From: Campylobacterales bacterium
GTDB lineage: Bacteria; Campylobacterota; Campylobacteria; Campylobacterales; JALSKU01
Direction of reading: 5' to 3'
Assembly: GCA_027065125.1 (NCBI GenBank)
Contig: JAMOOV010000043.1
Coordinates: 1-56,085 of the forward strand
DNA length: 56,085 nt
Part shown: positions 10,651 to 33,910 of the stretch, piece by piece
How positions within the stretch are numbered: the stretch's first letter is position 1
Layout of the letters: every line of letters begins with the position of its first letter
The notes under the pieces: generated by a model
The model's input: the letters and a program-made list of their open reading frames with translations, nothing else
What the model was told of the DNA's origin: nothing
The model's database searches: none
Made by a program: the position numbers and the translations under genes

Positions 10651-10675
10651 TAAAAAATAGTTTCAAAAATTGTTC

Positions 10676-10702
10676 TAAAATATTTTAAAAAATAACCGAT
10701 AT
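10676..10702 (+). promoter_or_regulatory. Sigma-28 (FliA)-type promoter candidate for fliL-acpS
   Basis: TAAAATAT-N11-ACCGATAT compared with the consensus TAAAGTTT-N11-GCCGATAA (6/8 + 6/8, correct spacing), about 30 nt upstream of the fliL ATG. Confidence 0.4.
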
Positions 10703-10731
10703 TATCTTATATCAAATCAAAAGGGAATATT

Positions 10732-15309: not shown

Positions 15310-16305
15310 ATGTCTTGTAAAAAACTTTATTTTCAATTATTCTCTTTTTTAGCTTTGTTAGTTTTTGTTGGAGGTTGTGCAAAAACACAAGAGGAAAAAG
15401 AACTCAAAAAAACCGAAAATAATATCAGTATCAGGATAGAAGGAGCTGTGTTTCCATATAAAAAGCAAGATATCATATCGTCCGTAGCCGGATATGTGGA
15501 AGATATCTATGTCAAAAACGGAGATAGAGTAAAAAAGGGAGATAAGATCTACTCTCTCGATAAAGAGTTGATTCAATTGGATATAGACAATAAAAAGATG
15601 GAGATAGTCTCCCTAAAGCAGATAAGAGATCACTTAATGAACAAAAGTAGTGTTGATGGAAGTGTTCCGGCGATCAATCTTGCGGCAATGGAGCTTAAAA
15701 AAGTGGCACTTCTTAGAGCCAAAGGTTATGCAAATGAGTTTGAAGAAAACAAGTATAAAAAGAATTATATAAACACCCTTAATAGCGGCAACAATAGCAA
15801 CAATTACGAAAAAATAAAAAATCTAAACAAACAGATAACAACTGCCGAAATAGATCTTAAAAAGTTGAAATATAAGTTAAAGCATGCGGATGCTTATGCA
15901 CAAATAGATGGATTTGTGGCCGATTTTCATCTCAATAAAAGGGAATCTATAGGAGTAAATAGAAAAATATGTACTATTGTTGATCTTGATAAAGTTATTG
16001 TCAAGGCCGGTTTTTCCACTGGACTATTGCCTTTTATATATAAAGGGGAACAAATAAGTATAAATTTCGTAACTACACCTCCATATAACACTTCATCCAC
16101 TATAACTCAAGTCAATCCTATAGTCAATCCTTCATTCGATAGAATGACCATAGAGACCGTTATACCGAATAAAAGTTATATATTACAAGAGGGGACAAGA
16201 GCTTTAGTAACAATTCCGTTATCCAAAAAGGGGCAAGAAGAGGTTAGAAAATATTTTCTCAACAATAAAAAAGATACAACACTTGAGATAAAATCTAAAA
16301 TCTAA
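15310..16305 (+). CDS. HlyD/MFP-family efflux periplasmic adaptor lipoprotein
   Basis: Lipobox 'VGGC', lipoyl-like 'GYVEDIYVKNGDRVKKGDKIYSLD', and a coiled-coil middle region. Confidence 0.7.
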   Translation: MSCKKLYFQLFSFLALLVFVGGCAKTQEEKELKKTENNISIRIEGAVFPYKKQDIISSVAGYVEDIYVKNGDRVKKGDKIYSLDKELIQLDIDNKKMEIVSLKQIRDHLMNKSSVDGSVPAINLAAMELKKVALLRAKGYANEFEENKYKKNYINTLNSGNNSNNYEKIKNLNKQITTAEIDLKKLKYKLKHADAYAQIDGFVADFHLNKRESIGVNRKICTIVDLDKVIVKAGFSTGLLPFIYKGEQISINFVTTPPYNTSSTITQVNPIVNPSFDRMTIETVIPNKSYILQEGTRALVTIPLSKKGQEEVRKYFLNNKKDTTLEIKSKI

Positions 16306-17711
16306 TTTATCGCATTATATAGATAGACTCGACCGAGAGGAAGAGGCTGTTTTGTAAAAATATCTCTTTGAAAGTCAAGCTTTACGGTTAGAGAACTGCT
16401 TGAGCCGCTTTTTAGCCAGCTATCGTTATATGCATCATAAATGTATCTATTTTTGGGTATATATTTGGATTTGATAGTTAAAAAAATCCTATCTTTATGA
16501 GGATTTACTACAAGCACGAAACCTTTCGTATAAAATCTAACATATCCGTCTATAGCTCCTATCTTTTCATAACTCTCTCCGAGCACTTTTCCAAGATCAT
16601 AAAAATATATATCATCTCTCTCCAATCTTTTGTCAAATGTAACTTCTGCATAAACGATATTATCGGTCAATTTTGCCATAGCATAACTAAAATATATGCC
16701 GTTTTTAGGCTTTTTCAGTCTATATACGGGAAAAGAGGGATAGACCTTTTCATACTCCGGTGCAAGATAATTGAGATATATAAAGTTTTTAAATCCGCTC
16801 TTTTTATATCTTTTCTTATATTTTGTCAGCAGATTTATAAAGTGTAGTGAGTCTTTTATACCCGTCGAATCCTTATATATGGGAAAATAGTTTGTAACCT
16901 TAAAATTATCAACCCATCCTCTTCCCTCTATTCGTATCTTTTTACCACTTTTTTTATCGGTAGTTATATAGCTCTCCGTCATATCGTAAGTTATATATTT
17001 AAGCAGATATTTTTCATTTCTAAATGCTTGATTGGTTACGAAAAAAATCCCCTTATCTTTTAATTTCTTATAAAATTTTCCGACTTGTTTGACATATATC
17101 TTTTGGGGATGCCTTTTTTTAAATGTTTCGTGCATCTTTTTAAATTTTTTACTTTTTATAAAAATACCCGGTGCCCAGTCAAAAAACAATCCGTTAAATC
17201 CGCTTTTTTTCATACTTTGACAAAGATCATCCACTCTCTTATTTAAAAGATCCTCGTTGCCCCAATCGTAAAAATAGTCCCTACACCAGTCATAACCGTT
17301 CTCCTTGCAGTGTATAAAAGGACCATCAGGATTTAAAGTGGTGGTAAATCTATTTTTATAGAGCCATTTAACAAACTCCCTATTGTTTCCGCTGGTATAG
17401 TAGTAAAAAGCGGGCATCCAATCGTAACCTATATGATAGGGAATATTTAATATACCTCTTTTTTTTAGAAAATCTTTTGTTGCTTTAGGATTGTCAACTC
17501 CGCCCATTTCGACTATCTTGAACTTTTTAGCCCAATTTAAAGCATCTTGATCGCTAAGAGCGGAGACAAGAGCATAATCGCCCATTTTTTTATCTACTCT
17601 CAATCCTTTTACATCATTATACACTCTATATGAGCTTTCGTCGCTTTTAAAAGAGACCACATCTTCGCCGTAGAGAGAAAAAAGAGTAAAAAATAGTAAA
17701 AATAGCTTCAT
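16302..17711 (-). CDS. Secreted TIM-barrel glycoside hydrolase-like protein (GH114 / PelA-hydrolase-like), last gene of the EPS operon
   Basis: Signal peptide. 'SGFNGLFFDWAPG' and 'GIFFVTNQAF...YDMTESY' resemble the GFDGvfLD and xxQNg...E blocks of endo-alpha-1,4-polygalactosaminidase-type enzymes. Confidence 0.4.
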   Translation of the reverse strand: MKLFLLFFTLFSLYGEDVVSFKSDESSYRVYNDVKGLRVDKKMGDYALVSALSDQDALNWAKKFKIVEMGGVDNPKATKDFLKKRGILNIPYHIGYDWMPAFYYYTSGNNREFVKWLYKNRFTTTLNPDGPFIHCKENGYDWCRDYFYDWGNEDLLNKRVDDLCQSMKKSGFNGLFFDWAPGIFIKSKKFKKMHETFKKRHPQKIYVKQVGKFYKKLKDKGIFFVTNQAFRNEKYLLKYITYDMTESYITTDKKSGKKIRIEGRGWVDNFKVTNYFPIYKDSTGIKDSLHFINLLTKYKKRYKKSGFKNFIYLNYLAPEYEKVYPSFPVYRLKKPKNGIYFSYAMAKLTDNIVYAEVTFDKRLERDDIYFYDLGKVLGESYEKIGAIDGYVRFYTKGFVLVVNPHKDRIFLTIKSKYIPKNRYIYDAYNDSWLKSGSSSSLTVKLDFQRDIFTKQPLPLGRVYLYNAIN

Positions 17712-18610
17712 TTTTTTACCAAATCCTTTATTTTTATATCTTTTGCTACAAGAAATATATAAAACATTATAAGATCAATGCCAAATATCAATATATGATA
17801 CAGAGTCGCACTAATAAGTGCATCGGTCTTATCCACTCCATATTTTGTCAAAAAAACCACAATCGCACCCTCAAAAGTACCCACTCCCGCCGGTGTCAAA
17901 GGTACACTCAAAGCGATAGTGGAAAATATAAAAAGCTCCAATATATCTTTAAAATCAAGATTAAAATCGACACTATATTTGAAAAAGATTATATTGCTAA
18001 CAAGATAAAAAAACCATAATAGTATAGTATAGAAAAATGCGGTATACGGAGTTTTTAAAAGTCTATTGATATTTTTATATATCTTTTGCCCATAGATTTT
18101 AACTATCCTTACTGGTATCTTTTTTATCATATTTAAGACTCTTTTGGAGTTGAAAAATATGATTATTAAAAAAATTGAAGCGGAGAGAACTATTACGGAG
18201 TTTTTAACTATCTCGTTTGAAAAGTAGCAATAGACCCATAAACACATTAACAAAAATAGAACTATCACATCAAAAAATCTCTCTATAAATATGATGGATA
18301 CACTTTTGTGATAACTGTATCCGTAAAATTTTTTTAGATAAAAAGCTTTCGAAAGTTCTCCGAGCCTTGCCGGAAGCAGCATATTTAAGGTACTTGAAAC
18401 GATAATGGTCTCCAAAGATATTTTCAGATTCAAGCCGCTCATTGCCATCCATCTAAAAGATAGCACTATTTGAGATATAACGATAGAAATCGTTGTCCAA
18501 AAAACTCCCCAAAAAGAAAAAATTGTAAAATCGATTTTACCGACATCCACACCCTTTAAAAGATAGGCGACTATCGCTAAAAATATGACGGTTTGTATGA
18601 GTTTATTCAT
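17708..18610 (-). CDS. Flippase-like domain protein (UPF0104 / lysyl-phosphatidylglycerol-synthase TM-region family), copy 2
   Basis: About 8 TM helices and about 300 aa. 'PARLGELSKAFYLK' and 'PLTPAGVGTFEGA' are typical of this family. Confidence 0.6.
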   Translation of the reverse strand: MNKLIQTVIFLAIVAYLLKGVDVGKIDFTIFSFWGVFWTTISIVISQIVLSFRWMAMSGLNLKISLETIIVSSTLNMLLPARLGELSKAFYLKKFYGYSYHKSVSIIFIERFFDVIVLFLLMCLWVYCYFSNEIVKNSVIVLSASIFLIIIFFNSKRVLNMIKKIPVRIVKIYGQKIYKNINRLLKTPYTAFFYTILLWFFYLVSNIIFFKYSVDFNLDFKDILELFIFSTIALSVPLTPAGVGTFEGAIVVFLTKYGVDKTDALISATLYHILIFGIDLIMFYIFLVAKDIKIKDLVKK

Positions 18611-19355
18611 ATCTTAAAACCGTTTTGATCTTTTTTTGTGTAGAACCAAAAGAGTAAAAGGCTAAAAAATAGTCCAAATTCAAATCCGCATACTCCTTAA
18701 ATCTTTTTAAAAGATTATCTTCCAAAAGCTCATAAGGATGGATATAAAGTATGCTATCTTTACTCTTTTTAAAAAGCATTTTCAAAACGGATAGCGGCAA
18801 AACCCTCAAATAAACACCTCCGCTAAAAGGAATAGTATATTTTAGGATCGGCCTCTCCTCTATGGTACCAAATTTCGTATAAATTTTAAACGATTTTTTT
18901 CTATCTATGCTGTTTCCGTACATATAGTTTTTCATCGGAAAATATGAAGAGGAGTACTCAAAACCCACTCTCGCCAACTCTTCATAATATCTCTTTTCAA
19001 AGGGCATCGACCAACTCGGACTTCTATACCCCAAAACTCTTTCGGATATTAAATTTTCCAATATATCCTTAGCTTCAGTCACTCTTTTAGACCACTCTTT
19101 AAAACCCTCTTTATATACAAGATTATGATACATCCCATGACAAGATATCTCTACACCGTTTTTATAGAGTTTTTTTACGATTTGCGGATATTTTTTAGCA
19201 AAAGTTCCAAGAATAAATGCGGTTGCATGATGATCTTTTTTGATCGACAAAAAATCATCAACAACTTTTTCATAGTCCAAAACAGGCTCTTTTTTCCAAA
19301 GAACATTGAAGTTCATATCGGTTATCTTTTCGATATCAATAGTGAGCCAAATCAT
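18603..19355 (-). CDS. Polysaccharide deacetylase (CE4), DUF3473-containing subfamily
   Basis: 'LTIDIE' (DxE metal motif variant), 'ATAFILG', 'EISCHGMYH' and 'GYRSPSWS', plus a C-terminal block resembling DUF3473. Confidence 0.7.
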   Translation of the reverse strand: MIWLTIDIEKITDMNFNVLWKKEPVLDYEKVVDDFLSIKKDHHATAFILGTFAKKYPQIVKKLYKNGVEISCHGMYHNLVYKEGFKEWSKRVTEAKDILENLISERVLGYRSPSWSMPFEKRYYEELARVGFEYSSSYFPMKNYMYGNSIDRKKSFKIYTKFGTIEERPILKYTIPFSGGVYLRVLPLSVLKMLFKKSKDSILYIHPYELLEDNLLKRFKEYADLNLDYFLAFYSFGSTQKKIKTVLRYE

Positions 19356-20263
19356 AAATCCACCAAATATTTACAAAGTTTAGGACCTATAAAATCTACA
19401 AAATTTTTAGGAAGTTTTTTCCATACACTTGAAGCAAAAGAGTATTTTGAGTAGATATCATCATTTTGTTTTTTTAGGATATCCACTTTTACGGGATAGG
19501 CTCCAAATCTATGTTTAAATGTATATCCACCACTACCATACGGGGATCTGCCAAAGTCAAATATCTTTTTATTTCTATTGTCACAAATATCTTTTATGAT
19601 ATTCCAATATGCAAAATGTCCTACAAGTCTATCTCTATACTTTTCATCCAAACCTCCCCAAGACCCATAGGATATATCCTTATCCATCAGTACACAATAG
19701 CTTGCTATAATATTATCATTATCATACACATTATAAAAAACCACATCATCCTTATATATCTCTTTTAGTATATAAAATAGTTTTTTATCTAATGAGGGAG
19801 TCCCATGTTTATACATAATGTTTGTAAAAATTTGATAAAAATCCTCTATAAATTTTTCCTCATTGCCGATCTTAAATGAAAAATTATTTTTTCTGATAGA
19901 GTTTTTTATTATTTTTCTATATTTTGATTTCATATTTGCAAGCATCTCTTCACTGGAGCAGTTATTAAAGCACATCCTCATTGTAACGGAATCACCGTTT
20001 TGGAAGTCGCTATACTCAAAGTTTAAAACCCTTATTTGATACTCGCTCTCTTTTGCAAGCTCTTTTAAATCCTCTATCAAGTTGCTATCTCTATCGCTAT
20101 AGCCAAGTAGAGGTATGTACGATAGCATTTTACCACCGAATATTGATGGGACAATTAAAAAATCCATATACTCCTCATATCCGTACATCTCTTTTAAAAC
20201 ATTTTTGAACTTTAGTGTAAACTCTTTTGAAAAAAGATACTTTTTATCTACATTTTTTTGCAT
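19352..20263 (-). CDS. FemAB-like / BioF2-like GNAT-fold transferase
   Basis: 'SKYRKIIKNSIRKN', 'FYQIFTNIMYKHGTP' and 'FDFGRSPYGSGGYTFKHRFGAYP' match FemAB-related acyl/aminoacyl-transferase family blocks. Confidence 0.6.
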   Translation of the reverse strand: MQKNVDKKYLFSKEFTLKFKNVLKEMYGYEEYMDFLIVPSIFGGKMLSYIPLLGYSDRDSNLIEDLKELAKESEYQIRVLNFEYSDFQNGDSVTMRMCFNNCSSEEMLANMKSKYRKIIKNSIRKNNFSFKIGNEEKFIEDFYQIFTNIMYKHGTPSLDKKLFYILKEIYKDDVVFYNVYDNDNIIASYCVLMDKDISYGSWGGLDEKYRDRLVGHFAYWNIIKDICDNRNKKIFDFGRSPYGSGGYTFKHRFGAYPVKVDILKKQNDDIYSKYSFASSVWKKLPKNFVDFIGPKLCKYLVDL

Positions 20264-20570
20264 TTTTCTTTGTACTATCCCTTATGATTTTTGTTATTGC
20301 TGCATGATTTTTATTGACTCCGACATAAAGAACTATATTCATCAAACCGGTCAAAGCTACCAATATATAAATGATAAGATCTTTTCCATAACCTATACCA
20401 AAAAAGTGTGCTATTTTATCGGAATAGTCGGGAAACATGATAAATAAAAATAGTGTCATGTAGCCGGCTATCACGGTTAGTTTTTGAAATATTTTCATCT
20501 TTGATGAAAAAGAAAAGAGTATAAAAGCTATAGTCAAAACGATGATAAGAAATATTTTTAAAAAAATCAT
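20244..20570 (-). CDS. DUF2304-family small membrane protein (GT2 partner)
   Basis: 108 aa with 3-4 TM helices. It lies immediately downstream of, and overlaps by 4 nt, a soluble Dpm1-like GT2, which is the usual DUF2304 context. Confidence 0.55.
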   Translation of the reverse strand: MIFLKIFLIIVLTIAFILFSFSSKMKIFQKLTVIAGYMTLFLFIMFPDYSDKIAHFFGIGYGKDLIIYILVALTGLMNIVLYVGVNKNHAAITKIIRDSTKKNAKKCR

Positions 20571-21259
20571 TTTATTAAATTCCCCACGAAAAAGTCAAGA
20601 ACTATATTGATGCTATTCCACATAGACTGTCCCTTATTTAGAGAATAATCAGTATATCTAATGTGGCAGGGTATTTCTTTGTATCTCATGTTTAGATTTT
20701 TTATGATACCGATAATCTCGGAAGCATGAGCCATTCTATTTTGGGTTATTTCAAAATTTGGAAATTTCTCTATATTGATAGCTCTAAAGCCATTGTGAGA
20801 ATCGGTAAGCCAAATACCGGTCGTAATCCAAGTAAAAAATCTTGAAGCCTTTAGAAGATATCTTTTACTTGTCGGCATATTTTCGGTACTTCCAAGAAAT
20901 CTCGAACCCAAAACTATATCGGCTTCGCCCTCTTTTAAAACCTTTATGAAAGACTCTATATCATCAGGGTTGTGCTGACCGTCCGAATCGAATGTAACCG
21001 CATATTTACACCCAAGCTCTCTTGCATACTCTATACCGGTTTGAAGAGTGGCTCCTTGACCGAGATTGACCATATGCTTCAATAGATATATGCCCTCTAA
21101 ACATGCCTCTTTATAGCTATTGTCCGAAGAGCAATCATCTACTACGATTATCCTATATTCGGGATACTTTTCTCTTAATTCAGTTAAAACATCTTTAACT
21201 ATTTTTTCTTCATTATAAAGAGGTATAACAATAGCTACCTCATATCTATTTTTTTTCAC
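20567..21259 (-). CDS. Glycosyltransferase family 2, Dpm1/polyprenyl-phosphate-sugar synthase-like (no TM tail)
   Basis: 'VAIVIPLYNEE', 'VVDDCSSDNS' and 'TFDSDGQHNPDDI' (DxDxQH signature). Confidence 0.85.
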   Translation of the reverse strand: MKKNRYEVAIVIPLYNEEKIVKDVLTELREKYPEYRIIVVDDCSSDNSYKEACLEGIYLLKHMVNLGQGATLQTGIEYARELGCKYAVTFDSDGQHNPDDIESFIKVLKEGEADIVLGSRFLGSTENMPTSKRYLLKASRFFTWITTGIWLTDSHNGFRAINIEKFPNFEITQNRMAHASEIIGIIKNLNMRYKEIPCHIRYTDYSLNKGQSMWNSINIVLDFFVGNLIK

Positions 21260-21289
21260 GAAATCGCACCTCCAAAATATAATACTTTT

Positions 21290-22216
21290 CTAAATTAAAT
21301 CACTCTTATTTTTAAACCGATTTACATTTGATAAAACTTTATAAGTAATATGTAAAATAATCACAAAAATAATCAGAAAACCAAAATTATCCAAAAATGA
21401 AATTAAAAAAGCTGTCTCTTTAGAAATACCAACCTTTACTAGGTAGTAAACAAAAATTCCCTCTCTTATACCCAATCCAGATATAGATAGAGGAAGTAGT
21501 GTCGAGAGTGCTCCAATTACTGCTACTGCACTCAGATAAAAAAAATTTATACTTGCACCTAGTGAAAGTGCAGAAAAATAAAACTCTAAAAAATAAAAAA
21601 CATATATAAAACCATTTTGAACAAATAGGTAAAAATCAGATTTTAAACTTAAACCTTTGAAATGCTCTATTTTCAATTTAATTGATAGCTTTTTTAAAAT
21701 AGGATTTTTTACAAAGAAAAGAACAAACATGGCAGTTGTAAAGATAATAAGATATATATTTGTAGGTAATTTCAATATGAAAATAAAACTAAATATTCCT
21801 AGTAAAGCCATAAAATACAAATCTTGAAATCTATCATATATATAAGCCATAATTGACACTCTTTTCGGAATATTAGCTTGAGCTTCTAAAAATAGAATTT
21901 TAATTGATTCTCCTATACGAGAAGGTGTGATAAAACCAAAATATTGAGATTCAATCGTAGCCCCAAAAACATTAAATAGTGGAGGTTCATGCCCATAATA
22001 TTTCAATATAAAACTAAATCTATACACTTTTAAAAAAAAATAGATAAAAAAACTCATCATATGTAAAAACAGATAGAAAAAATTTATTTTTTTAAGTATA
22101 AGAAAAATTTTATCATACTGTAGTGTCGAAAGTATATATAATAAAATTATTATACCTGCAAAATGAAATATCTTTGATATTTTTTTTATATTATATGTTT
22201 TCATAACTTTATACAA
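21290..22216 (-). CDS. Flippase-like domain protein (UPF0104 / LPG-synthase TM-region family), copy 1
   Basis: About 8 TM helices. 'PSRIGESIKILFL' and 'LPLSISGLGIREG' are equivalent to the motifs in the 17708..18610 paralogue. Confidence 0.55.
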   Translation of the reverse strand: MYKVMKTYNIKKISKIFHFAGIIILLYILSTLQYDKIFLILKKINFFYLFLHMMSFFIYFFLKVYRFSFILKYYGHEPPLFNVFGATIESQYFGFITPSRIGESIKILFLEAQANIPKRVSIMAYIYDRFQDLYFMALLGIFSFIFILKLPTNIYLIIFTTAMFVLFFVKNPILKKLSIKLKIEHFKGLSLKSDFYLFVQNGFIYVFYFLEFYFSALSLGASINFFYLSAVAVIGALSTLLPLSISGLGIREGIFVYYLVKVGISKETAFLISFLDNFGFLIIFVIILHITYKVLSNVNRFKNKSDLI

Positions 22217-22267
22217 ATTATTTTTAAAATTACTTTTATAAAATGCCGAAAACCATAAAGATATATT

Positions 22268-23152
22268 CTAATCACGATGAATTATCTCCATCCTGATATT
22301 ATTAATCTGCTCGGCAAGAAGTGCAGATATAAAAAGTATAACTGAATTTGACAGAAGAAAAACTGTAGTATTGGTAAGATTGATATGATATAAATCTACA
22401 CAAAATGAACCCAACCCTAATGTCCCAAATACAATACTAAGAGGCAAAACAACTCTTAGTGGTTTAAAAATCATTCCCAATTCTAAAATTTTTAAAATGG
22501 TTCTAAAACCAGTTTTCATACTTACTTGACTCTCCCCTGTTGTTCTTTTTTGAACATTTATAGGAATATATATCAAATCGTATCCGTTGGATATATATGC
22601 CAAAGTTATAGATGTGGTAAAACTAAACCTCTCGGAGCAAAGATGTAAAAATTTTTTAGCCTCTTTTTTACTAAACACTCTAAAACCGGAATTTATATCC
22701 GGTATCTCCTGTTTGAAGATAAAATTGGCAATCTTGTGAAGCAAAATCTTTCCCAAAACTCTGCTTACTTTTGTCTGATAAACTTTTCTCTCTCCTATAA
22801 CCATGCTCTCTTTGCTCTCATAAGCATCCAACAGCTTGGGTATCTCTTCGGGTCTGTGCTGACCGTCCGAATCCATTATGACTATAGTATCATATTTTGC
22901 ACTCTTAATACCTGTTTTTAATGCTCCTCCATATCCTCTGTTTTTTTTATGGTGAATAACCGTTATACCGTCAAAATTGTCTAAAATTTCAGGACTTTTA
23001 TCTGCAGACTTATCATCAACACATACTATCTCATACTCATATTGCTTAGAATCCAAAAAACTTTTTAAACTCTCCAAAGTCATCTCAAGAGACGACTCTT
23101 CATTATGCACTGGTATAACTATACTAAACTGTTTTTTCATCTTTTTCATCAT
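22268..23152 (-). CDS. Glycosyltransferase family 2, GtrB/ArnC/CsbB-like, with two C-terminal TM helices
   Basis: 'FSIVIPVHNEE', 'CVDDKSADKS' and 'IMDSDGQHRPEEIPKL', plus C-terminal hydrophobic segments. Confidence 0.85.
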   Translation of the reverse strand: MMKKMKKQFSIVIPVHNEESSLEMTLESLKSFLDSKQYEYEIVCVDDKSADKSPEILDNFDGITVIHHKKNRGYGGALKTGIKSAKYDTIVIMDSDGQHRPEEIPKLLDAYESKESMVIGERKVYQTKVSRVLGKILLHKIANFIFKQEIPDINSGFRVFSKKEAKKFLHLCSERFSFTTSITLAYISNGYDLIYIPINVQKRTTGESQVSMKTGFRTILKILELGMIFKPLRVVLPLSIVFGTLGLGSFCVDLYHINLTNTTVFLLSNSVILFISALLAEQINNIRMEIIHRD

Positions 23153-26851: not shown

Positions 26852-26856
26852 TAAAA

Positions 26857-28173
26857 TTATTTCCTTATGATCACAAAATCAACCCTTCTGTTAAAAGATC
26901 TTCCTTTTTCAGTTTTATTGGAGGCTATAGGTCTATCTTCTCCATAACCTACTACATCAATCCTACTTCTATCTATTCCCATTTTTACCATTTCACTTTT
27001 AACTGAATTGGCTCTATTTATAGAGAGTTTATAGTTGTATTTTCTTGATGCTATACTGTCAGTATTGCCTTCTACTCTAACTCTATAAGTAGGATGTTCC
27101 TTCAAATATCTAACTATCGGTTTAAGCAACTTAATACTATCGGGTGTTAATTGATATGAATCATATGCAAAGTGTAAATTGTGGAGTGAGAGTTTTAGTC
27201 CCTTATCAAATCTATCTTTAACATTCTGATATCTATCCTTATCCCAATCAAGATACATTCTATTTAACAAGAAATATATAAGTTTCCATCTAAACAGCTC
27301 TCCATCGTACATTTTATCCTGAAATTCAAAAGGTCTTAAAAATACCACTCCGCCTTTTCCGTATCTTATAAAAGATACAAGAGGTTTTCCAGTTTTGGAT
27401 CTGAGTATATATCTGCCCTTGGGTATAAAATCAACCGTCATAAAATTTTTCGTAATTAGTTGCAGATTGTTTATATCTTGAAAATATGGTATATCACTCT
27501 TTACTCTATATTTGAGCTTCAAAGGCTCATAGTTGATAAAATCAAGCTTTTTGCTTTTATAGATATATGTTTGAACACTCTTATCGAGAAATTTTAAATT
27601 TCTACTTTTTTCCACCATTTTACTTGTAATGGCTTTAGCATCTATCTCACCGTTTTTCTTAAAAGTATCGTATCTCGTAGAATAGATACCTCCTTCAACC
27701 CAGAGAATTCCACCCTCGTCAATCCACCATTTAAGTATCTCCTGCTCTTTTGATGATAAGTTGTAAGTATAGCCTATATCTTCAAAAAGATCGTTAGAAA
27801 CTCTTTTAAATTCATTAGCCCACATAGGAAGTACATAGACAAAATCCTCGGCAAAAGGATTTGTTCTAAGTTTCCAAAAATCAACATCTTTTATATTATC
27901 AAATTTATATCTATAGTCTATCTTGCTATAAAACTGATCTGAAAACTTTCCATGAAAATCTATAATAGGTTTATATGAAACAAAAGGAAATTCTTTTAAC
28001 AGTTTTCGGCCATTGTTGACTTCAGGCCAAATATTATCTACTGTTACATCATAAATCTCGACTCTTTCCGGAGATAATATCTTCTTTTCAAAAGTGGCAT
28101 CATTTCTAATCGCACAACCCCCTAAAAACAAGATAATAAAAATAAAACTTAATATATATTTTCTCACAAGCAA
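26857..28173 (-). CDS. Lipoprotein with a C-terminal OmpA-like peptidoglycan-binding domain and an unknown N-terminal domain of about 310 aa
   Basis: Lipobox 'LGGC'. The C-terminus 'VEGNTDSIASRKYNYKLSINRANSVKSEMVKMGI...NRRVDFVI' is OmpA_C-like. Confidence 0.8.
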   Translation of the reverse strand: MLVRKYILSFIFIILFLGGCAIRNDATFEKKILSPERVEIYDVTVDNIWPEVNNGRKLLKEFPFVSYKPIIDFHGKFSDQFYSKIDYRYKFDNIKDVDFWKLRTNPFAEDFVYVLPMWANEFKRVSNDLFEDIGYTYNLSSKEQEILKWWIDEGGILWVEGGIYSTRYDTFKKNGEIDAKAITSKMVEKSRNLKFLDKSVQTYIYKSKKLDFINYEPLKLKYRVKSDIPYFQDINNLQLITKNFMTVDFIPKGRYILRSKTGKPLVSFIRYGKGGVVFLRPFEFQDKMYDGELFRWKLIYFLLNRMYLDWDKDRYQNVKDRFDKGLKLSLHNLHFAYDSYQLTPDSIKLLKPIVRYLKEHPTYRVRVEGNTDSIASRKYNYKLSINRANSVKSEMVKMGIDRSRIDVVGYGEDRPIASNKTEKGRSFNRRVDFVIIRK

Positions 28174-28180
28174 ACCTTTT

Positions 28181-29758
28181 CTAAAAAGACGAATAATAGT
28201 AAAAATCTAATTTTTTAAACATTGTAGCAGCATAATTAAAACTTAACCACCAAAATAAAACACTACCTACAAGCAGACCAAATACGGCAAATTCAAGTCC
28301 GAACATTCTACTAAAAATTACACCTATGACAATATTTACAAATGTAGCCAACGAAATCGACTTTAACGAAAAATTTTGTCTCGAAAATGAAAATATAAAC
28401 AGAACATTCATCAATCCGTTAACCAAAAAAGCATAAGATACAGCCCCAATCCAATATACAAACGGAGTATAACTATTAAAAAAGTTTTCGATATACTCAA
28501 AATTAAAAAATTTATGAATAATCCATATAGATAGGAAAACTACGATAATAATAGCAATCGAAAAAAATAGATATACAAAATTGAATTTTTTAAAGAAAGT
28601 AAAAACACTATTGTTAAATTTAAGATATTCATTATACTTAAATGAGATGATCATATCGTTTATTCGATACATAAATTCATGTATGCTTATCTCTGTAAAT
28701 CCCATAAGTAACACCAAAGATATAAGTGCCCAATCAAGCCCAAGCTCATAAGGAACATCAAACCATATAAAATATGGTTTTGCTTCTACATTGGTGCTCC
28801 AAGCTGTTATCCTGTCTGCGACAAGAAAGATAAAATACATCAATCCGTACATATAAAACGGTATCAAAGAGTAAAAAAGTATGGAAGCTCTTGGTGTTCC
28901 CTCGCCCTCGGCAATAACATTTTTTTTCAAACCTCTAACTTTTTTATAAGCGAAAAATGAGAGCACTGTGTTTAAAATAACAAGAGCGATAAATTGTGCT
29001 TCGGGAAGTTTTATTTTAAAAAGAGAGTGAACAATGTAAACAAGAATTATACCAAGTAGAAAAAAGTATAAAATTTTCATATACTCTTCAAACATATAAT
29101 AAATCGATATATTTAAAAATAAAAATGATAGTAAAAAATAAAAAGCTATCAAGATAAAAAAATAGTAAGTAGGTAAAACATCAAAAAAAAAGTTAAACAG
29201 CATCAATATAATCCCTACGGCAAAAACAAGAATAAAACCAACATTCACCAAAACTATTGTAACATTTGAAGCAAGTATGGTTTCACTCTGCTTTAGATAA
29301 AACAGACCTTTTCTTCCTATAGCTTGAGCGGAAGCTCCGGTAACTATAAGAGCTAAAAAAGTTCCGAGAGCTATAACCGTAGCTTTTGATTTATCAAGAT
29401 TGATACCTGACCATATGGCATAACCTATGGAAAGAGTAAAAAATATTTGCACGAACATAGGCATAGCAAATGCCAATCCTCTAATATAGTTTTTTACAAC
29501 TCTTTTGCCAAAAGCCGGTAACTCCTCCCACTCTACAAGCTTTTTAGATGGATACTTTTTGATATCCTTATATCTCATAAGATATTTAGCCATCTCAAAA
29601 ACATTTTTAAAACCGTAATCTTTTTGGACATCAATATCTCTAATGCCATATATCTCAAGCAAGGCGGCAATCTCCCAAAAATCCAAAGGTTTACCTTTGT
29701 TTTCGGTTATCTTTTTATAAAGTATGCTTAGATCTTGACTGTTGCCGTCTGTTGCCAC
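28181..29758 (-). CDS. 12-TM PelG-like (MOP-type) membrane protein with a cytoplasmic N-terminal extension of about 95 aa
   Basis: I count 12 hydrophobic helices. It sits directly downstream of a PelF-like gene (31-nt overlap), as pelG does. Sequence-level identity to PelG is not verified. Confidence 0.45.
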   Translation of the reverse strand: MATDGNSQDLSILYKKITENKGKPLDFWEIAALLEIYGIRDIDVQKDYGFKNVFEMAKYLMRYKDIKKYPSKKLVEWEELPAFGKRVVKNYIRGLAFAMPMFVQIFFTLSIGYAIWSGINLDKSKATVIALGTFLALIVTGASAQAIGRKGLFYLKQSETILASNVTIVLVNVGFILVFAVGIILMLFNFFFDVLPTYYFFILIAFYFLLSFLFLNISIYYMFEEYMKILYFFLLGIILVYIVHSLFKIKLPEAQFIALVILNTVLSFFAYKKVRGLKKNVIAEGEGTPRASILFYSLIPFYMYGLMYFIFLVADRITAWSTNVEAKPYFIWFDVPYELGLDWALISLVLLMGFTEISIHEFMYRINDMIISFKYNEYLKFNNSVFTFFKKFNFVYLFFSIAIIIVVFLSIWIIHKFFNFEYIENFFNSYTPFVYWIGAVSYAFLVNGLMNVLFIFSFSRQNFSLKSISLATFVNIVIGVIFSRMFGLEFAVFGLLVGSVLFWWLSFNYAATMFKKLDFYYYSSF

Positions 29759-31245
29759 TCTTCATCCTTATTTTCAATATATTCGTTATATAATTTTTTA
29801 TACATAACACTATAATTTTCCACCATATCCTCTATAGAAAAACCGTTTAATATAAACTCTCTCGCATCGCTTCCCATCTCTTGTGCAATATCGGGATTTT
29901 TTAAAATATATATAACCTTATCGGCAAATTCTTGATAATCTTTCGGTTTTATTACATACCCAAACCCCTCAAGCACCTCTTTCGTACCCCCTACATCCGA
30001 AGAGACTACAACCTTTTCACAAGCCATCGCCTCTATAACAACAAAAGGGAAAGCCTCCGAAATACTTGTAAGCATAACGACATCTCCCTCGTTGTATGCA
30101 CTCTCTGGACTATTTGTTAAGCCGGAAAATTCAAAATTGTTTTCAATACCAAGTTCTTTCACAAGGCTTTCGCATTTATGATAATACTTTTCATCTACAA
30201 TCGGACCATAGAGTTTAAATAGCACATCAGAAATCTCCTTAGAAACTATATCGGCAGTTTTTATAAAAGTTTCTATATCTTTTAAAGGATCTATTCTTGC
30301 TACCATAACGACAGTAGGTCTTTGCTCATCTTTTTGTATATTCATATTTTTAAATTTTATAGTATCTATGCCATTATAAATGGTATGTATCTTGTTTTTA
30401 TCCACTCCCCATTCTACTTCCCATCTTGAATTATAGTCACATACTGGAGCAATAATATCGGCATAATAAAAATTTAGCTTAGAAACAAGAGTAATTAGCC
30501 CCATCATAAACTCTTTGGTACGAATCGGCATCAAATTCCTTGAAGCGGCAAGATATTGCTCTCTTATGTAAACTCCATGTTCTGTTAATAAAAATTTGCT
30601 ATTGAACTTTTTTTTTGCAACTATACAAGAAAGACCACAAAAAGCTGCCGCCGAAGAGTGATATATGTGAGCTTCGGGAAGATGAGGCAAAAGAGATATA
30701 AAAAATCTATAAAGATATCTAAGTCCCTCTATCATATCAAAAACTGTAGGAAGATCCTCTTTGATATCTTTGTAGTGATTTAAAATATATCCTCTATAAA
30801 TATTCCACATCTCTTCGGATCTAAATGTTTCATAATAATCATACTTATGAAAATATTCATAAAACTCATAGATCGCATCTCCAAGAGCTTCAAGATCATT
30901 TTTTTTCCTATAAATATGGTCTAACACTAAAATCAAAATAGGTTCTAATTTTTGTATATTATTACTTACCTGGGTTTTTATCTTTGCCTCATATATAATT
31001 GAAAAATCTATCTGTCTTATATACTCGATAGGCTCTTCTGTTCCCCACAAAGGAACATTTATAATATCAACAACATTCGGAGGTATATCAAACTTTAATT
31101 TTACAAAGGGATGCATCTGTATAGGAATAAGGGTAAAATCTATATTTTTGAGTTCATGCATTAATATATCAGCCCATGTGCTAACACCTCCCGTTACATA
31201 GGGGTAGGTACCCTCACCCGTCCAAACTACCTTAATACGACTCAT
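29728..31245 (-). CDS. pelF: PelF-family GT4 glycosyltransferase (DUF3492-type N-terminus)
   Basis: 'VVWTGEGTYPYVTGGVSTW', 'LTEHGVYIRE' and 'VMLTSISEAFPFVVIEAMACEKVVVSSDVGGTKEVLEG' closely parallel P. aeruginosa PelF blocks as I recall them. Confidence 0.8.
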   Translation of the reverse strand: MSRIKVVWTGEGTYPYVTGGVSTWADILMHELKNIDFTLIPIQMHPFVKLKFDIPPNVVDIINVPLWGTEEPIEYIRQIDFSIIYEAKIKTQVSNNIQKLEPILILVLDHIYRKKNDLEALGDAIYEFYEYFHKYDYYETFRSEEMWNIYRGYILNHYKDIKEDLPTVFDMIEGLRYLYRFFISLLPHLPEAHIYHSSAAAFCGLSCIVAKKKFNSKFLLTEHGVYIREQYLAASRNLMPIRTKEFMMGLITLVSKLNFYYADIIAPVCDYNSRWEVEWGVDKNKIHTIYNGIDTIKFKNMNIQKDEQRPTVVMVARIDPLKDIETFIKTADIVSKEISDVLFKLYGPIVDEKYYHKCESLVKELGIENNFEFSGLTNSPESAYNEGDVVMLTSISEAFPFVVIEAMACEKVVVSSDVGGTKEVLEGFGYVIKPKDYQEFADKVIYILKNPDIAQEMGSDAREFILNGFSIEDMVENYSVMYKKLYNEYIENKDEEWQQTATVKI

Positions 31246-33094
31246 AAAATTTTCTCTTTCCCACTAAAATACTTAAGAGCGATAACTCTTTGATATAATT
31301 TTGTTCCATATTTATGTATTGCTTTTTATAATCAAAATACTCTTTTAAAGCATCAGAATACTCTTTGTATGTTGATATGCCACTTAAATATCTTTTTACA
31401 GTAATATCATACTTTTTATGTGACAAAAAGAGTAGTTTTTTCAAAAAGCTTTTTTGTCTATCAAGTCTCTCGACTTCATGATAAGACTTTTCCACCTTTA
31501 TCAATATATCTCTATGTTTTGCCGAGAGAACTCTCCTTTGTTTCAATATACGATACCTCTCTCTTTCTTGAGAAAGTCTAATATCATCTCTTTCGTAAAT
31601 AGGAGCTCTAAAAGTTAAGCCCAAAGACCAAAACGAGCCTTTACCGGCATTTGAAAAGGTAAAAGTATCATCTTTATTGAGTCCGTAACCTACTCTGGAT
31701 GTAAAATCTATTTTAGGATAGTATCTTCTCTCTTGAGAGATTAAGTCGGCCTCTTTGATTTTTAGTATATTGGATTCCGTTGCTATATCGCTACTGTGCT
31801 TGATAGCCTCTCTTTCCAATCTGGCAAGAGACTCTATATTTAGATTTACTTTTGCAGGATGGAGTTTAAAAGGTTTTTTGCTTTTTGATTTTATACTGTG
31901 TCTTAAAACATAGTCTCTATATCTATATCTATATGCCGAATCAAGTATAGCCCTTTGTATATTTATATAATCTCTTTGAGCATTTATGTAGTCTAAAATA
32001 GAATTTTTACCAAGCTTATATCCTTCATCAACTATCTTTTTAACGAAAAGATGTTTTTTTAGCATCTTCTTATAGTCGCTTAGCTCCTCTTGAGCGGAAT
32101 ACATATCGGTATATATAGCCGTTCCCAATACGGATAGCTTCTCTTTAGCATTTATCTCTTTGATATCCGCCAATCTTTTATATAAAATATCATATGCATT
32201 TTTAACAAGTCCATATTGCCCGTCATATAGAAGTTTATTGGCATTTAAAGATATACCGGCATCGGTATATTTTCCGTTTCCTTTTATATTGTTGCCGTTA
32301 GTGGATATACTTGATCCTGTTCTGATATATCCGTCTATATATATATCGAAATTGTATCTATCTTTCTTTATCTCGGAGAGTATATACTCTATCTTTTTTT
32401 GATAAAAAGCCTCTTTGGCACTATCGTTATAGTTAAAAAGTGCTTTTATATATCTATCAAAATTAAGTATATCATACTTTTGAGTATCGGATTGTTTATA
32501 TAGTGCGGGGATTTGGTGCTTTTTTAAAACTTCCGGTTCATTTAGTTTAACCCCATTTTCAATATTTGATACTTTTTTTGAAGCAAGAAAGATATGTTTT
32601 TTATTTTTATCCATATTGATTTCTTTGAGTTTTATCTGTTTTGCAGGACTCTCTTGAGAAATATTTTTCTGGATAAAACAGGTTGTGTCAATATTTTTAC
32701 TATTTTTTGCATCAAATGTTTTTATTGTATTGTTCTCTTTTTGACTTGTTTGTGCAAAAGGCAGAGATTTTATAGGCTGATTCTTGACGATTTCAACTTT
32801 TTGCTTGGTTGACGAGATTCTGTCTATTGAATCATCCTTGATTATAAAAGCATCTTTGTAATATCTTTTTGCAAATTTTATCGTTTTTTTAGCTTCATTA
32901 TAATTTTTGATATGGCTTATCTTAAATACATAATACTTTTTTTGTTTTTCTATGGTGCCATTTGAAAATCTATTTAAAAAATTTTTTTTATCTTTGTTGT
33001 AAACTTTTATTGTTGAAAAAAATATGATATTATATTGAGAGGCTTGCAGGGAAATAACTGTTATAAAAAATAGAACAAATTTAAAAAATTTCAT
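31232..33094 (-). CDS. Outer-membrane TolC/OEP-like protein with an N-terminal SPOR-like domain; first gene of the EPS operon
   Basis: Signal peptide. Residues about 20-90 ('YNIIFFST...YYVFKISHIKNYNEAKKTIKFAKRYYKDAFII') fit the SPOR beta-alpha-beta pattern. The C-terminal portion of about 400 aa has OEP-like coiled-coil repeats. Confidence 0.5.
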   Translation of the reverse strand: MKFFKFVLFFITVISLQASQYNIIFFSTIKVYNKDKKNFLNRFSNGTIEKQKKYYVFKISHIKNYNEAKKTIKFAKRYYKDAFIIKDDSIDRISSTKQKVEIVKNQPIKSLPFAQTSQKENNTIKTFDAKNSKNIDTTCFIQKNISQESPAKQIKLKEINMDKNKKHIFLASKKVSNIENGVKLNEPEVLKKHQIPALYKQSDTQKYDILNFDRYIKALFNYNDSAKEAFYQKKIEYILSEIKKDRYNFDIYIDGYIRTGSSISTNGNNIKGNGKYTDAGISLNANKLLYDGQYGLVKNAYDILYKRLADIKEINAKEKLSVLGTAIYTDMYSAQEELSDYKKMLKKHLFVKKIVDEGYKLGKNSILDYINAQRDYINIQRAILDSAYRYRYRDYVLRHSIKSKSKKPFKLHPAKVNLNIESLARLEREAIKHSSDIATESNILKIKEADLISQERRYYPKIDFTSRVGYGLNKDDTFTFSNAGKGSFWSLGLTFRAPIYERDDIRLSQERERYRILKQRRVLSAKHRDILIKVEKSYHEVERLDRQKSFLKKLLFLSHKKYDITVKRYLSGISTYKEYSDALKEYFDYKKQYINMEQNYIKELSLLSILVGKRKFYESY

Positions 33095-33162
33095 TTTTTT
33101 CCTAATGATTTATCTCATAGACTTATGGAAGACATTGTAGCTATCCTAACAAATACTACAGT

Positions 33163-33176
33163 AGTATAACATTATA
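33163..33176 (-). promoter_or_regulatory. Candidate -10 region(s) for the EPS operon (TATAAT, and an overlapping TGTTATACT, on the minus strand)
   Basis: Read from the reverse complement ...AAAAAATATAATGTTATACTACTG..., about 70-80 nt upstream of the ATG at 33094. Confidence 0.35.
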
Positions 33177-33273
33177 TTTTTTAAAATCTCTTTTTATATT
33201 TGTTTTATGTCGTATATTAAGTGAAATAAGATAAGTAGAAAGTAAAATGATAATAAAATATTGAATCAACAAT

Positions 33274-33303
33274 ATAAGTTAGAAATTAAAATTTCTAACT
33301 TAT
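33274..33303 (-). terminator. Intrinsic terminator hairpin after ppiB
   Basis: Perfect 13-bp stem ATAAGTTAGAAAT/ATTTCTAACTTAT with a 4-nt loop, 6 nt after the ppiB stop. The downstream tail is moderately U-rich. Confidence 0.55.
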
Positions 33304-33833: not shown

Positions 33834-33910
33834 TGGTCGGAACGACTGGATTTGAACCAGCGACCTCACCCACCCCAAGGGTGTGCGCTACCAGGCTGCG
33901 CTACGCTCCG
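33834..33910 (-). tRNA. tRNA-Pro (anticodon GGG)
   Basis: Hand-folded cloverleaf: acceptor CGGAGCG/CGTTCCG, anticodon stem CACCC/GGGTG, loop UUGGGGU, T-loop TTCAAAT, encoded CCA. Confidence 0.9.

Follow-up and report, generated by a model that had tools for sequence, protein, structure and literature searches.

Pel is among the most widespread biofilm polysaccharide systems, and its product is a partially de-N-acetylated polymer of alpha-1,4-linked N-acetylgalactosamine (GalNAc). To our knowledge, all versions of the Pel machinery described so far need PelD and PelE, and those of Gram-negative bacteria also need PelB and PelC. Three-component pathways of lipid-linked glycosylation are known chiefly from the synthesis of O antigens, cell-wall rhamnans, teichoic acids and arabinogalactan. 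Here, a gene cluster that links these two kinds of pathway was analyzed in a stretch of 56,085 nucleotides from a Campylobacterales bacterium (assembly GCA_027065125.1, contig JAMOOV010000043.1, positions 1 to 56,085), called the window in the following. Rearrangements, losses and Gram-positive loci with only PelF and PelG are described in a survey of Pel loci (PMC7112194), whose consulted passages contain no locus composed like the one in the window.

An initial annotation, made from the letters of the window, had proposed 14 minus-strand open reading frames (ORFs) at 16302-33094, and the ORF table gives identical coordinates. The cluster is real and conserved in sulfur-oxidizing Campylobacterota, and it probably makes, decorates and exports, through a TolC-type channel, a Pel-like surface polysaccharide. 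That all of its parts belong to one envelope-spanning system, which would make, decorate and export a Pel-like extracellular or cell-surface polysaccharide, is the interpretation towards which we lean with modest confidence. Together with a plus-strand adaptor gene and the upstream non-coding elements, the locus comprises the following features (lengths in amino acids, aa; GT, glycosyltransferase; CE, carbohydrate esterase; TM, transmembrane).

Gene 1, 31232-33094, minus strand, 620 aa: TolC-family outer-membrane channel
Gene 2, 29728-31245, minus strand, 505 aa: PelF-type GT4, presumed polymerizing enzyme, predicted to be cytoplasmic
Gene 3, 28181-29758, minus strand, 525 aa: divergent PelG-family polytopic inner-membrane protein
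Gene 4, 26857-28173, minus strand, 438 aa: lipoprotein with an orphan N-domain and a C-terminal OmpA-type peptidoglycan-binding domain
Gene 5, 24656-26851, minus strand, 731 aa: polytopic protein with a C-terminal periplasmic alpha/beta domain, probable new GT-C-fold glycosyltransferase
Gene 6, 23124-24659, minus strand, 511 aa: membrane-anchored HD-GYP protein, candidate regulator linked to cyclic di-GMP (c-di-GMP)
Gene 7, 22268-23152, minus strand, 294 aa: GT2 with two C-terminal TM helices, second putative polyprenyl-phosphate-sugar synthase
Gene 8, 21290-22216, minus strand, 308 aa: MprF-type flippase-like protein, paired with gene 7
Gene 9, 20567-21259, minus strand, 230 aa: soluble PpgS/GacI-type GT2, putative polyprenyl-phosphate-N-acetylhexosamine (HexNAc) synthase
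Gene 10, 20244-20570, minus strand, 108 aa: small DUF2304 membrane protein, putative activator or partner of gene 9
Gene 11, 19352-20263, minus strand, 303 aa: cytoplasmic FemAB-like protein of GNAT fold, putative acyl- or aminoacyltransferase
Gene 12, 18603-19355, minus strand, 250 aa: putative cytoplasmic CE4 de-N-acetylase with a DUF3473 domain
Gene 13, 17708-18610, minus strand, 300 aa: MprF-type flippase-like protein of the main donor cassette
Gene 14, 16302-17711, minus strand, 469 aa: secreted (beta/alpha)8-barrel glycoside hydrolase (GH) of the GHL15 family with a C-terminal beta-sandwich
Adaptor gene, 15310-16305, plus strand, 331 aa: HlyD-type periplasmic adaptor (membrane-fusion) lipoprotein, fifteenth component
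Probable AT-rich terminator hairpin, about 33262-33301, minus strand: directly after a peptidyl-prolyl isomerase (PPIase, cyclophilin) gene
Leader and presumed promoter region of gene 1, 33095-33261, minus strand: within a non-coding stretch of about 214 nt

The product of gene 2, initially read as a PelF-like GT4, matches the NCBIfam PelF model NF038011 over its full length (169.3 bits, cut-off 100) and the Pfam families DUF3492 (1.7e-40) and Glycos_transf_1 (5e-32). With identities of 59-82% across Campylobacterota (42% to a copy outside this phylum, in the locus L082 described below), PelF clearly exceeds all other proteins of the locus in conservation within the phylum. For gene 3, the PelG-like label holds in so far as Pfam PelG (PF16933) is the sole family match and extends over the full length (model positions 34-451 of 452, E 9e-4), but the window copy stays sub-threshold with 18.7 bits against a gathering score of 29 bits. 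Its orthologues match PelG in 17 of 30 cases (E <= 0.01), the best at 5.2e-12. The match to the PelG model begins at residue 100 and is preceded by a conserved cytoplasmic N-terminal extension of about 90 aa (residues 1-95), which has no Pfam match and whose invariant residues include P24, E29, G38, R40, D41 and D43, with an R-D-x-D arrangement inside the sequence GIRDID. The RxxD in GIRDID was set aside as a motif too short for interpretation. An assignment of genes 2 and 3 to families unrelated to Pel would have spoken against the initial annotation, and the profile searches went its way instead.

No locus protein matched PelA, PelB, PelC, PelD or PelE in profile searches, as the failure to recognize PelB to PelE in the initial annotation had suggested. 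Neither GGDEF nor GAF nor PelD was matched in the 15 proteins, the HD-GYP domain of gene 6 being the only domain related to c-di-GMP, and no TPR or PelE match was obtained for any of them. PelB and PelC had no match in the locus either, and a TolC-family protein and an HlyD-family adaptor are found there instead. PelA, a periplasmic protein with a GH166 hydrolase and a CE4 domain, likewise gave no match; its hydrolase domain is just the 35th fold match of gene 14, and the CE4 protein of the locus, gene 12, is cytoplasmic.

For the comparative survey, 15 PelF-centred and 57 gene-5-centred loci were collected from species-representative genomes and supplemented by contigs found through exact protein look-up, and all 15 proteins were compared with the collected loci by tblastn. 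Genes 1-6 keep their synteny in essentially every long contig that carries a related locus. About 40 loci from at least five genera also show a linkage of the modification genes to this block, including those with an inverted or rearranged module. Because both the synteny and the linkage are conserved, the gene arrangement is not due to chance. The GC content of the locus (27-33%) agrees with that of its flanks, which together with the conservation across genera rules out chance clustering as well as a recent mobile insertion. The neighbourhoods of PelF homologues in Sulfurimonas, Sulfuricurvum, Nitratiruptor and Caminibacter fall into four architectures.

Type I (Sulfurimonas, a Sulfurospirillaceae metagenome-assembled genome (MAG), Caminibacter): 1-2-3-4-5-6-9-10-11-12-13-14 and the adaptor gene
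Type II (Nitratiruptor): 1-6 with gene 5 duplicated, then an inverted block adaptor-12-13-11-10-9
Type III (Sulfuricurvum): 1-2-3-4-5-11-(gene 7 type)-12-13-adaptor-6
Type IV (some Sulfurimonas): 1-6, a different GT2, a flippase-type protein (MprF-like; GtrA in locus L012), then 14

The window locus corresponds approximately to type I with genes 7 and 8 inserted. Outside the Campylobacterota, a contig of 59.8% GC (L082, Logan SRR33270631) holds at 4464-14830 a co-directional run of genes for an adaptor, an outer-membrane protein of the OEP family, PelF, a PelG-like protein, a gene-5-like protein, a GT2, a DUF2304 protein and a large GT2, and a further distant locus (L083) combines a gene-5-like protein with a GT2 and a DUF2304 protein. 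It follows from the survey that the invariant association consists of PelF, PelG, gene 5, a GT2 donor synthase, the adaptor and the TolC-like protein. The initial annotation had treated the 14-gene block as a unit in which a Pel-type core is joined to a module for lipid-linked sugars, flipping and FemAB-type modification; this linkage is conserved across orders, but genes 7 and 8 are lineage-specific and lie outside the conserved core. Two further locus copies resemble those of Campylobacterota and come from MAGs labelled as Pacearchaeota (L055) and Desulfurellales (L061), assignments that are probably binning errors.

The polytopic nature of the 731-aa protein encoded by gene 5 had been recognized and the protein left without an assignment; by its fold it is now a probable GT-C transferase. 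Its family counts 142 members in a database of 5.8 billion clusters, and all named members are from Campylobacterota and annotated as "hypothetical". Neither Pfam nor NCBIfam gave a match for the window protein, nor did Pfam for 10 distant relatives. An AlphaFold model based on 34 homologues (predicted local distance difference test score, pLDDT, 83; predicted template modelling score, pTM, 0.84) was compared with the PDB by Foldseek, and the 13 best matches were all GT-C enzymes (STT3, DPY19, PglB, ArnT, AftD, AftA, EmbB), with E-values from 1e-4 to 0.19 and probabilities of 0.98-1.00 for ranks 1-9 and 0.75-0.98 for ranks 10-13. Unrelated transporters appeared only from an E-value of about 1. 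The layout, a polytopic N-terminal part followed by a periplasmic C-terminal domain, is also that of GT-C enzymes. On the other side of the balance, the TM-scores are low (0.2-0.44) and the Foldseek E-values, at best 1e-4, are modest, the family profile has no match among PDB sequences, which makes the GT-C assignment one of fold, a profile alignment with Escherichia coli ArnT (hhalign) gave a probability of 0.1%, and no catalytic acidic residue was identified in the first periplasmic loop, the invariant residues D187, E333 and D439 lying elsewhere. Since the TM-scores are low and a link at the sequence level is missing, we refer to the protein as a new family of GT-C fold, and gene 5 is probably a new glycosyltransferase of this kind.

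Copies of gene 5 vary in number and integrity. A tandem duplicate is present in Nitratiruptor (L016, 7603-12202) and in L003, three copies are found in L036, an internal deletion occurs in Sulfurimonas sp. STC_122 (L013/L057), and in Nitratiruptor tergarcus DSM 16512 the gene appears in fragments of 496, 175 and 170 aa, all of which suggests that it undergoes copy-number change and decay.

The oligosaccharyltransferases STT3 and PglB are the top fold matches of gene 5, and this might point to an en-bloc glycosylation pathway, in which the PelF-like enzyme would build a lipid-linked oligosaccharide, the PelG-like protein, a member of the MOP superfamily, would flip it in the manner of Wzx, and gene 5, in the role of an oligosaccharyltransferase or ligase, would transfer it to protein or lipid. 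Proteins of the MATE/MOP type are indeed used to flip lipid-linked sugars in three-component systems (PMC11127046). However, no initiating phosphoglycosyltransferase of the WecA or PglC type was found among the 15 proteins, flippase candidates of the MprF-like or GtrA type are already available, NCBIfam places gene 2 in PelF and not among the GT4 enzymes of Pgl or O-antigen pathways, and a TolC-like protein, an adaptor and a secreted endo-type hydrolase suit a secreted polymer. Such a pathway therefore appears highly improbable.

The surroundings of gene 5 are informative with regard to its donor. In every related locus it is paired with a GT2 of the polyprenyl-phosphate-sugar-synthase type, and a flippase-type protein is also present wherever the sequence of the related locus reaches far enough (MprF-like, or GtrA in L012). 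The related loci contain no further GT-C candidate, and the combination of gene 5, GT2 and DUF2304 is retained even in the distant loci L082 and L083. This context supports the use of a polyprenyl-phosphate-linked sugar donor by gene 5.

Genes 7-13 are proposed to provide this donor, and here the initial family assignments (two GT2 proteins, two MprF-flippase-like proteins, a DUF2304 protein, a FemAB-like transferase and a DUF3473-type CE4) were all borne out by profile searches. Gene 9 matches the NCBIfam model PpgS over its full length with 205.8 bits, under the equivalog cut-off of 370, and is 52-73% identical across Sulfurimonas, Nitratiruptor and Caminibacter. PpgS is the mycobacterial polyprenyl-phospho-GalNAc synthase. 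Gene 7 is of the ArnC/GtrB/AglJ type (Glycos_transf_2 2e-35; NCBIfam matches to AglJ, PgfS and ArnC). Both flippase-like proteins match LPG_synthase_TM (PF03706) and, above its cut-off, the TIGR00374 flippase-like domain, gene 8 with 8.8e-28 and 1.6e-18 and gene 13 with 5.2e-34 and 7.6e-14, respectively; in L012, the slot of gene 13 is taken by a GtrA-family protein (PF04138, 1.3e-13). In MprF, a flippase domain of the LPG_synthase_TM type is joined to a FemX-like synthase, and NodB followed by NodA is a precedent for a pair of enzymes that deacetylates and then acylates. Gene 11 matches Acetyltransf_6 (2.2e-8) and FemAB_like (8e-8), and its best NCBIfam model is that of the XrtA-associated FemAB family, TIGR03019 (1.1e-33, 116.7 bits versus a cut-off of 260). 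Gene 12 matches Polysacc_deac_1 (7e-12) and DUF3473 (1.2e-12), its best NCBIfam model being the XrtA deacetylase TIGR03006 (8e-36, 123.5 bits versus a cut-off of 276), with NodB at 2e-9; no significant similarity to E. coli ArnD was detected (E 3.7). As no signal peptide was found in 34 orthologues of gene 11 or in 30 orthologues of gene 12, the CE4 and FemAB-like proteins are taken to act in the cytoplasm, unlike PelA, PgaB and IcaB. Gene 10 matches DUF2304 (6.3e-12), the family of GacJ and Rv3632, which bind and stimulate GacI and PpgS, respectively (10.1101/180810; PMC9671496).

GT2, CE4, FemAB-like and flippase-like genes form a recurring cassette that exists in two sequence-divergent versions, one in types I and II and the other in type III, with both occurring together in L023. 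Close orthologues of gene 7 were found only in L023, L033 and L066, and its type (51-54% identity) is the sole donor GT2 of the Sulfuricurvum loci. In L023, the closest relative with the same upstream synteny, the cassette of genes 7 and 8 still has its own CE4 and FemAB-like genes, which indicates that genes 7 and 8 of the window are a reduced second donor cassette. Between its two donor cassettes, L023 additionally carries, at 17908-19403 (minus strand), an extra FemAB-like gene and a hexapeptide-repeat acyltransferase gene on the opposite strand, and the window has neither of them.

With respect to export, the description of gene 1 as SPOR-like and TolC-like stands for the TolC family, but not for SPOR, as the N-terminal extension has no Pfam match at E <= 1. 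The TolC-family region comprises residues ~210-612 (Pfam OEP 6.8e-27 in two stretches; TolC model TIGR01844 1e-10), the matches in the PDB are TolC, OprM and OprJ, and the N-terminus is signal-like. The extension of about 200 aa is lineage-specific and absent from the Caminibacter protein (425 aa). The gene at 15310-16305, convergent with gene 14 and overlapping it by 4 nt, had been taken as the downstream boundary of the operon; a convergent gene is indeed present, but it is itself a conserved member of the system. Its product carries HlyD_D23 (4.7e-14), Biotin_lipoyl_2 and HlyD_3 domains, and a lipobox is present in all full-length orthologues. The gene co-occurs with almost every related locus, on either strand and at varying positions. 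In Caminibacter and Sulfuricurvum it shares the strand of the operon, being its last gene in the former and lying in its interior in the latter; in Nitratiruptor it closes the inverted module, and in L082 it comes first. Furthermore, two distant proteins of the gene 5 family, P0395 and P0436, are naturally fused to a C-terminal HlyD-like adaptor. P0395 comes from a Caldilineaceae MAG; its residues 11-696 match the gene 5 profile (E 1e-47) and its residues 769-1231 the adaptor profile (E 5e-15). Because of this co-occurrence and these fusions, the adaptor is regarded as the fifteenth member of the system. P0395 is located in L075/L081 and P0436 in L077; the contigs begin at the fusion gene, and in L075 the next genes encode two large proteins with DUF2194, ThuA-like and DUF2334 (CE4-like) domains. 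An inner-membrane pump of the ABC, RND or MFS type is not encoded in the locus according to profile searches.

Fusion to and co-occurrence with the adaptor would place gene 5 at the entrance of the export route, and polymerizing enzymes (AftD, AftA and EmbB) are among its fold matches. Mycobacterial Emb/Aft proteins and mannan GT-C enzymes polymerize processively in the periplasm, and by analogy gene 5 might be a periplasmic polymerase or exporter that uses flipped polyprenyl-phosphate-(acyl)hexosamine and feeds the adaptor and TolC channel, with PelF and PelG supplying just a primer or a second chain. Its duplication or triplication in Nitratiruptor, L003 and L036 would be compatible with such a role, as would a donor cassette that seems elaborate if it served decoration only. 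We nevertheless consider this improbable, since PelF, with 59-82% identity the most conserved protein of the locus, is the accepted type of Pel polymerase (PMC9894940), and since type IV loci have just a simple GT2 and a flippase-type protein; processive and single-addition GT-C enzymes look alike at this level of analysis.

The OmpA-domain lipoprotein proposed for gene 4 is supported by a lipobox (LGGC) and an OmpA match (4.4e-23, residues 335-429), which follows an orphan N-domain of about 300 aa. In Nitratiruptor, Caminibacter and Sulfuricurvum this N-domain is kept without the OmpA domain. A profile built from 14 orthologues gave no PDB match at E <= 1 and no consistent Pfam match. A remotely PelC-like role of the N-domain is conceivable. 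A GATase1/ThuA-like fold, suggested by a motif and one weak DUF4159 match, was dismissed as a mere guess.

The secreted protein encoded by gene 14 had been described as resembling GH114 and the PelA hydrolase. Although its fold does resemble those of the PelA hydrolase domain, GH114 and GH191, it is closer to GH168 and GH66, and the protein is better described as GHL15-type. A direct profile search gave no match, and among 39 relatives 11 match Pfam GHL15 and one matches GH114. The model (pLDDT 96) consists of a (beta/alpha)8 barrel and a beta-sandwich, with a signal-like N-terminus, and its Foldseek matches include GH168, GH66, GH13, the PelA hydrolase domain (5tcb, TMt 0.61), GH191 and GH114. 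This fold is common to alpha-glycan hydrolases, including the alpha-galactosaminidases of GH114 and GH191, and agrees with the formation of alpha linkages by the GT4 of gene 2, since GT4 enzymes are retaining and give rise to such linkages.

For gene 6, the HD-GYP assignment was substantiated by HD_5 (2.8e-21) and by the HD-GYP phosphodiesterase 4mcw as best PDB match (1.9e-22). One TM helix is followed by a region of about 250 aa and then by the HD-GYP domain; the N-terminal 250 aa have no Pfam match. The HDIG and HHER.DG.GYP motifs are intact in the window protein and at least 90% conserved in 37 orthologues, and the gene is present in every Campylobacterota locus type.

These observations can be assembled into a proposed mechanism. 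By family membership, the PelF-type GT4 (gene 2) would polymerize an alpha-linked, probably HexNAc-rich glycan from UDP-sugars in the cytoplasm, and the PelG-type protein (gene 3) would move it across the inner membrane. Families, localization and conserved adjacency suggest that gene 9 and its DUF2304 partner gene 10 form polyprenyl-phosphate-HexNAc at the cytoplasmic face, that gene 12 removes the N-acetyl group from the lipid-linked sugar in the cytoplasm, that gene 11 then attaches an amino acid, presumably from aminoacyl-tRNA, or another acyl group to the free amine, and that gene 13 flips the resulting lipid to the periplasmic leaflet. Genes 7 and 8 would represent the second, reduced donor cassette, consisting of a GT2 and a flippase-like protein. 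In the periplasm, gene 5, judged by its fold and context, may transfer the lipid-linked sugar onto the glycan, and the co-occurrence and natural fusions would be explained if it docked to the HlyD-type adaptor, which in turn would connect to the TolC-like gene 1. This route would replace PelB and PelC. The OmpA lipoprotein (gene 4) might be an accessory tying the machine to peptidoglycan, gene 14 might trim or release the polymer, as the PelA hydrolase domain, BcsZ and PslG do, and the HD-GYP protein (gene 6) might couple output to c-di-GMP in place of PelD. A farther-reaching version of this scheme, namely that the gene 5 family is a new GT-C family which docks directly onto the HlyD adaptor and TolC channel and so physically couples the periplasmic transfer of a lipid-linked, de-N-acetylated and re-acylated, possibly aminoacylated, amino sugar to the export of the PelF/PelG polymer, is put forward only tentatively, and we would rather doubt than assert it.

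Several observations do not fit easily into one Pel-like machine. The window copy of gene 3 stays below the Pfam threshold for PelG. Type IV loci have neither the CE4 nor the FemAB-like gene, and type III loci have no gene 14, so that the proposed steps cannot all be obligatory. HD-GYP domains normally degrade c-di-GMP, while Pel is activated by c-di-GMP binding, and for this reason gene 6 as a stand-in for PelD is a conjecture. Some distant homologues of gene 5 stand alone, and genomes with the full locus also hold a separate pair of a gene-14-like and a gene-5-like gene (34-38% identity), which means that gene 5 may act on an acceptor other than the PelF product. Such pairs were observed in L044 (8752-12112) and L056 among housekeeping genes (D-Tyr-tRNA deacylase, PurM-like, spermidine synthase), and these neighbours ruled out the L044 pair as a mini three-component locus.

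The separate pairs keep alive the possibility of two adjacent but separate systems, one, with PelF, PelG, the TolC-like protein and the adaptor, producing and exporting an undecorated Pel-like polymer and the other, with the GT2, CE4, FemAB-like, flippase-like and GT-C genes, adding a modified amino sugar to lipid A or lipooligosaccharide (LOS), peptidoglycan or protein in an Arn- or Gtr-like manner. The fold matches of gene 5 include the lipid A modifier ArnT as well as PglB and STT3, the E. coli arn operon, by its annotation, displays the same logic of GT2, CE4, flippase and GT-C, and in Nitratiruptor the donor cassette is a separate transcription unit of opposite orientation. However, in every architecture gene 5 lies inside the block of PelF, PelG, lipoprotein and HD-GYP and never with the donor cassette, the gene 5 family is fused to an adaptor that would be expected to serve export, and L082 holds PelF, PelG, gene 5, GT2 and DUF2304 in a single co-directional run. 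Two separate systems consequently appear unlikely, though less so than the two alternatives discussed above, and one integrated machine is favoured because gene 5 is fixed in the PelF/PelG block, because its family is fused to adaptors and because of the architecture of L082.

The genes of the window locus are tightly packed, with nine stop/start overlaps of 4-31 nt and four remaining gaps that, at 7, 5, 51 and 30 nt, do not exceed the limit of 51 nt reported initially. Upstream, the terminator and the non-coding region of about 213 nt proposed in the initial annotation were recovered as a hairpin at ~33262-33301 and a gap counted as 214 nt. The hairpin (-16.3 kcal/mol, z = -5.4) folds better than any of 200 shuffled sequences (0/200 folding equally well); it was overlooked by a consensus terminator scan because it is not GC-rich, and it is a probable barrier isolating the locus from upstream transcription. 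Promoter- and terminator-like sites within the block are not enriched in comparison with shuffled sequence, consensus scans being uninformative in AT-rich DNA, and the 214-nt leader contains no Rfam family, c-di-GMP riboswitches included, at E <= 1. Less than 4 kb upstream and in the same orientation, genes for an LptF/LptG-family permease, a prepilin peptidase and undecaprenyl-diphosphate synthase (UppS) are located at 34632-37058 (minus strand). The donor cassette would draw on the lipid carrier made available by UppS, and the adjacency may be coincidence. A second gene of the TolC/OEP family (12681-13874, minus strand, 397 aa) lies 1.4 kb past the adaptor gene, flanked by genes for a class-III aminotransferase and a methyltransferase. 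The window also contains three tRNA genes (33837-33910, minus strand; 55844-56006, plus strand), one of them in the interval that separates the TruA gene from the PPIase gene, a short distance upstream of the locus.

A conserved version of Pel without PelB to PelE would reveal what belongs to the true core of the Pel machine, and the locus links a synthase-dependent exopolysaccharide (EPS) pathway to three-component lipid-linked glycosylation. Provided that the coupling of gene 5, adaptor and TolC-like protein is true, it would represent a previously unrecognized class of envelope-spanning polysaccharide secretion machines. The locus is carried by abundant chemolithoautotrophs that live at hydrothermal vents and in sulfidic sediments and groundwater, where its polymer may be of importance for the formation of mats and biofilms. 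Some carriers are available in culture (Caminibacter pacificus and Nitratiruptor strains), which makes experiments feasible. In the mycobacterial galactosamine (GalN) pathway, the steps of deacetylation and flipping have been called "as yet unidentified" (PMC9671496), and with a PpgS/Rv3632-like pair lying beside a CE4/DUF3473 protein and an MprF-type flippase-like protein, the latter two types are candidates for these missing steps of the PpgS pathway.

The initial annotation knew of no characterized system with this composition, and full-text literature searches found no description of one. The locus shares with Pel (pelABCDEFG of Pseudomonas aeruginosa; pelDEA(DA)FG of Gram-positive bacteria) a PelF-type GT4 with DUF3492 next to a divergent PelG-like protein, a putative link to c-di-GMP signalling and a secreted TIM-barrel hydrolase whose fold resembles the PelA hydrolase domain. 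It differs from Pel in having no detectable PelA deacetylase, PelB, PelC, PelD or PelE, and in an export route that appears to be of the TolC-like and HlyD type. Its c-di-GMP component is an HD-GYP enzyme, whereas that of Pel is a receptor with a GAF and a degenerate GGDEF domain; its CE4 is cytoplasmic and not periplasmic, and a GT-C-like protein with a lipid-linked donor pathway is an integral part of it.

The three-component systems (GtrA/GtrB/GtrC; GacI/GacJ/GacK/GacL; PpgS/Rv3632/Rv3779 of Mycobacterium tuberculosis; Citrobacter GT136) likewise combine a GT2 synthase, a flippase candidate and a polytopic transferase of GT-C fold, and the arrangement of gene 5, GT2 and flippase in the window matches the general concept of three-component glycosylation (PMC11127046; 10.1101/180810). 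A GT2 with a DUF2304 activator is known from GacI/GacJ and PpgS/Rv3632, and one related locus has a true GtrA-family protein in the flippase slot. However, the GT-C candidate of the window belongs to an unnamed family that has no sequence match to known GT-C enzymes, its flippase candidate is usually of the MprF type and not GtrA, Wzx or MATE, CE4 and FemAB-like enzymes are added between synthesis and flipping, and the presumed acceptor is a synthase-dependent Pel-type polymer and not an O antigen, rhamnan or arabinogalactan. The Arn pathway (ArnC, ArnD, ArnE/F, ArnT) follows the same order of chemistry, with a GT2 producing a polyprenyl-phosphate N-acyl amino sugar, a CE4 taking off the N-acyl group at the cytoplasmic face, a flippase and a GT-C, but no relationship of sequence is detectable past the family level, the FemAB-like re-acylation is additional in the window and the genomic partners are others.

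Genes 11 and 12 find their best NCBIfam models (TIGR03019 and TIGR03006) in the FemAB and CE4 (DUF3473) pair of XrtA/PEP-CTERM systems, which similarly forms an adjacent pair in an EPS locus; they score far under the equivalog cut-offs, and no exosortase or PEP-CTERM protein was seen among the window ORFs examined. With MprF, the locus shares the LPG_synthase_TM domain (genes 8 and 13) beside the FemX-like GNAT-fold protein of gene 11, as if a split MprF acted on another lipid, although the proteins are separate, gene 13 matches full-length MprF weakly (E 2.5e-4), and the presumed substrate is a polyprenyl-phosphate amino sugar. Finally, a TolC-family protein together with an HlyD-family lipoprotein adaptor resembles the tripartite TolC export systems (type I secretion, RND, ABC and MFS efflux, glycolipid export by DevBCA-HgdD). 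These systems differ from the present locus in that no pump is encoded in the latter, and the natural fusions suggest that gene 5, possibly together with PelG, serves as the inner-membrane partner.

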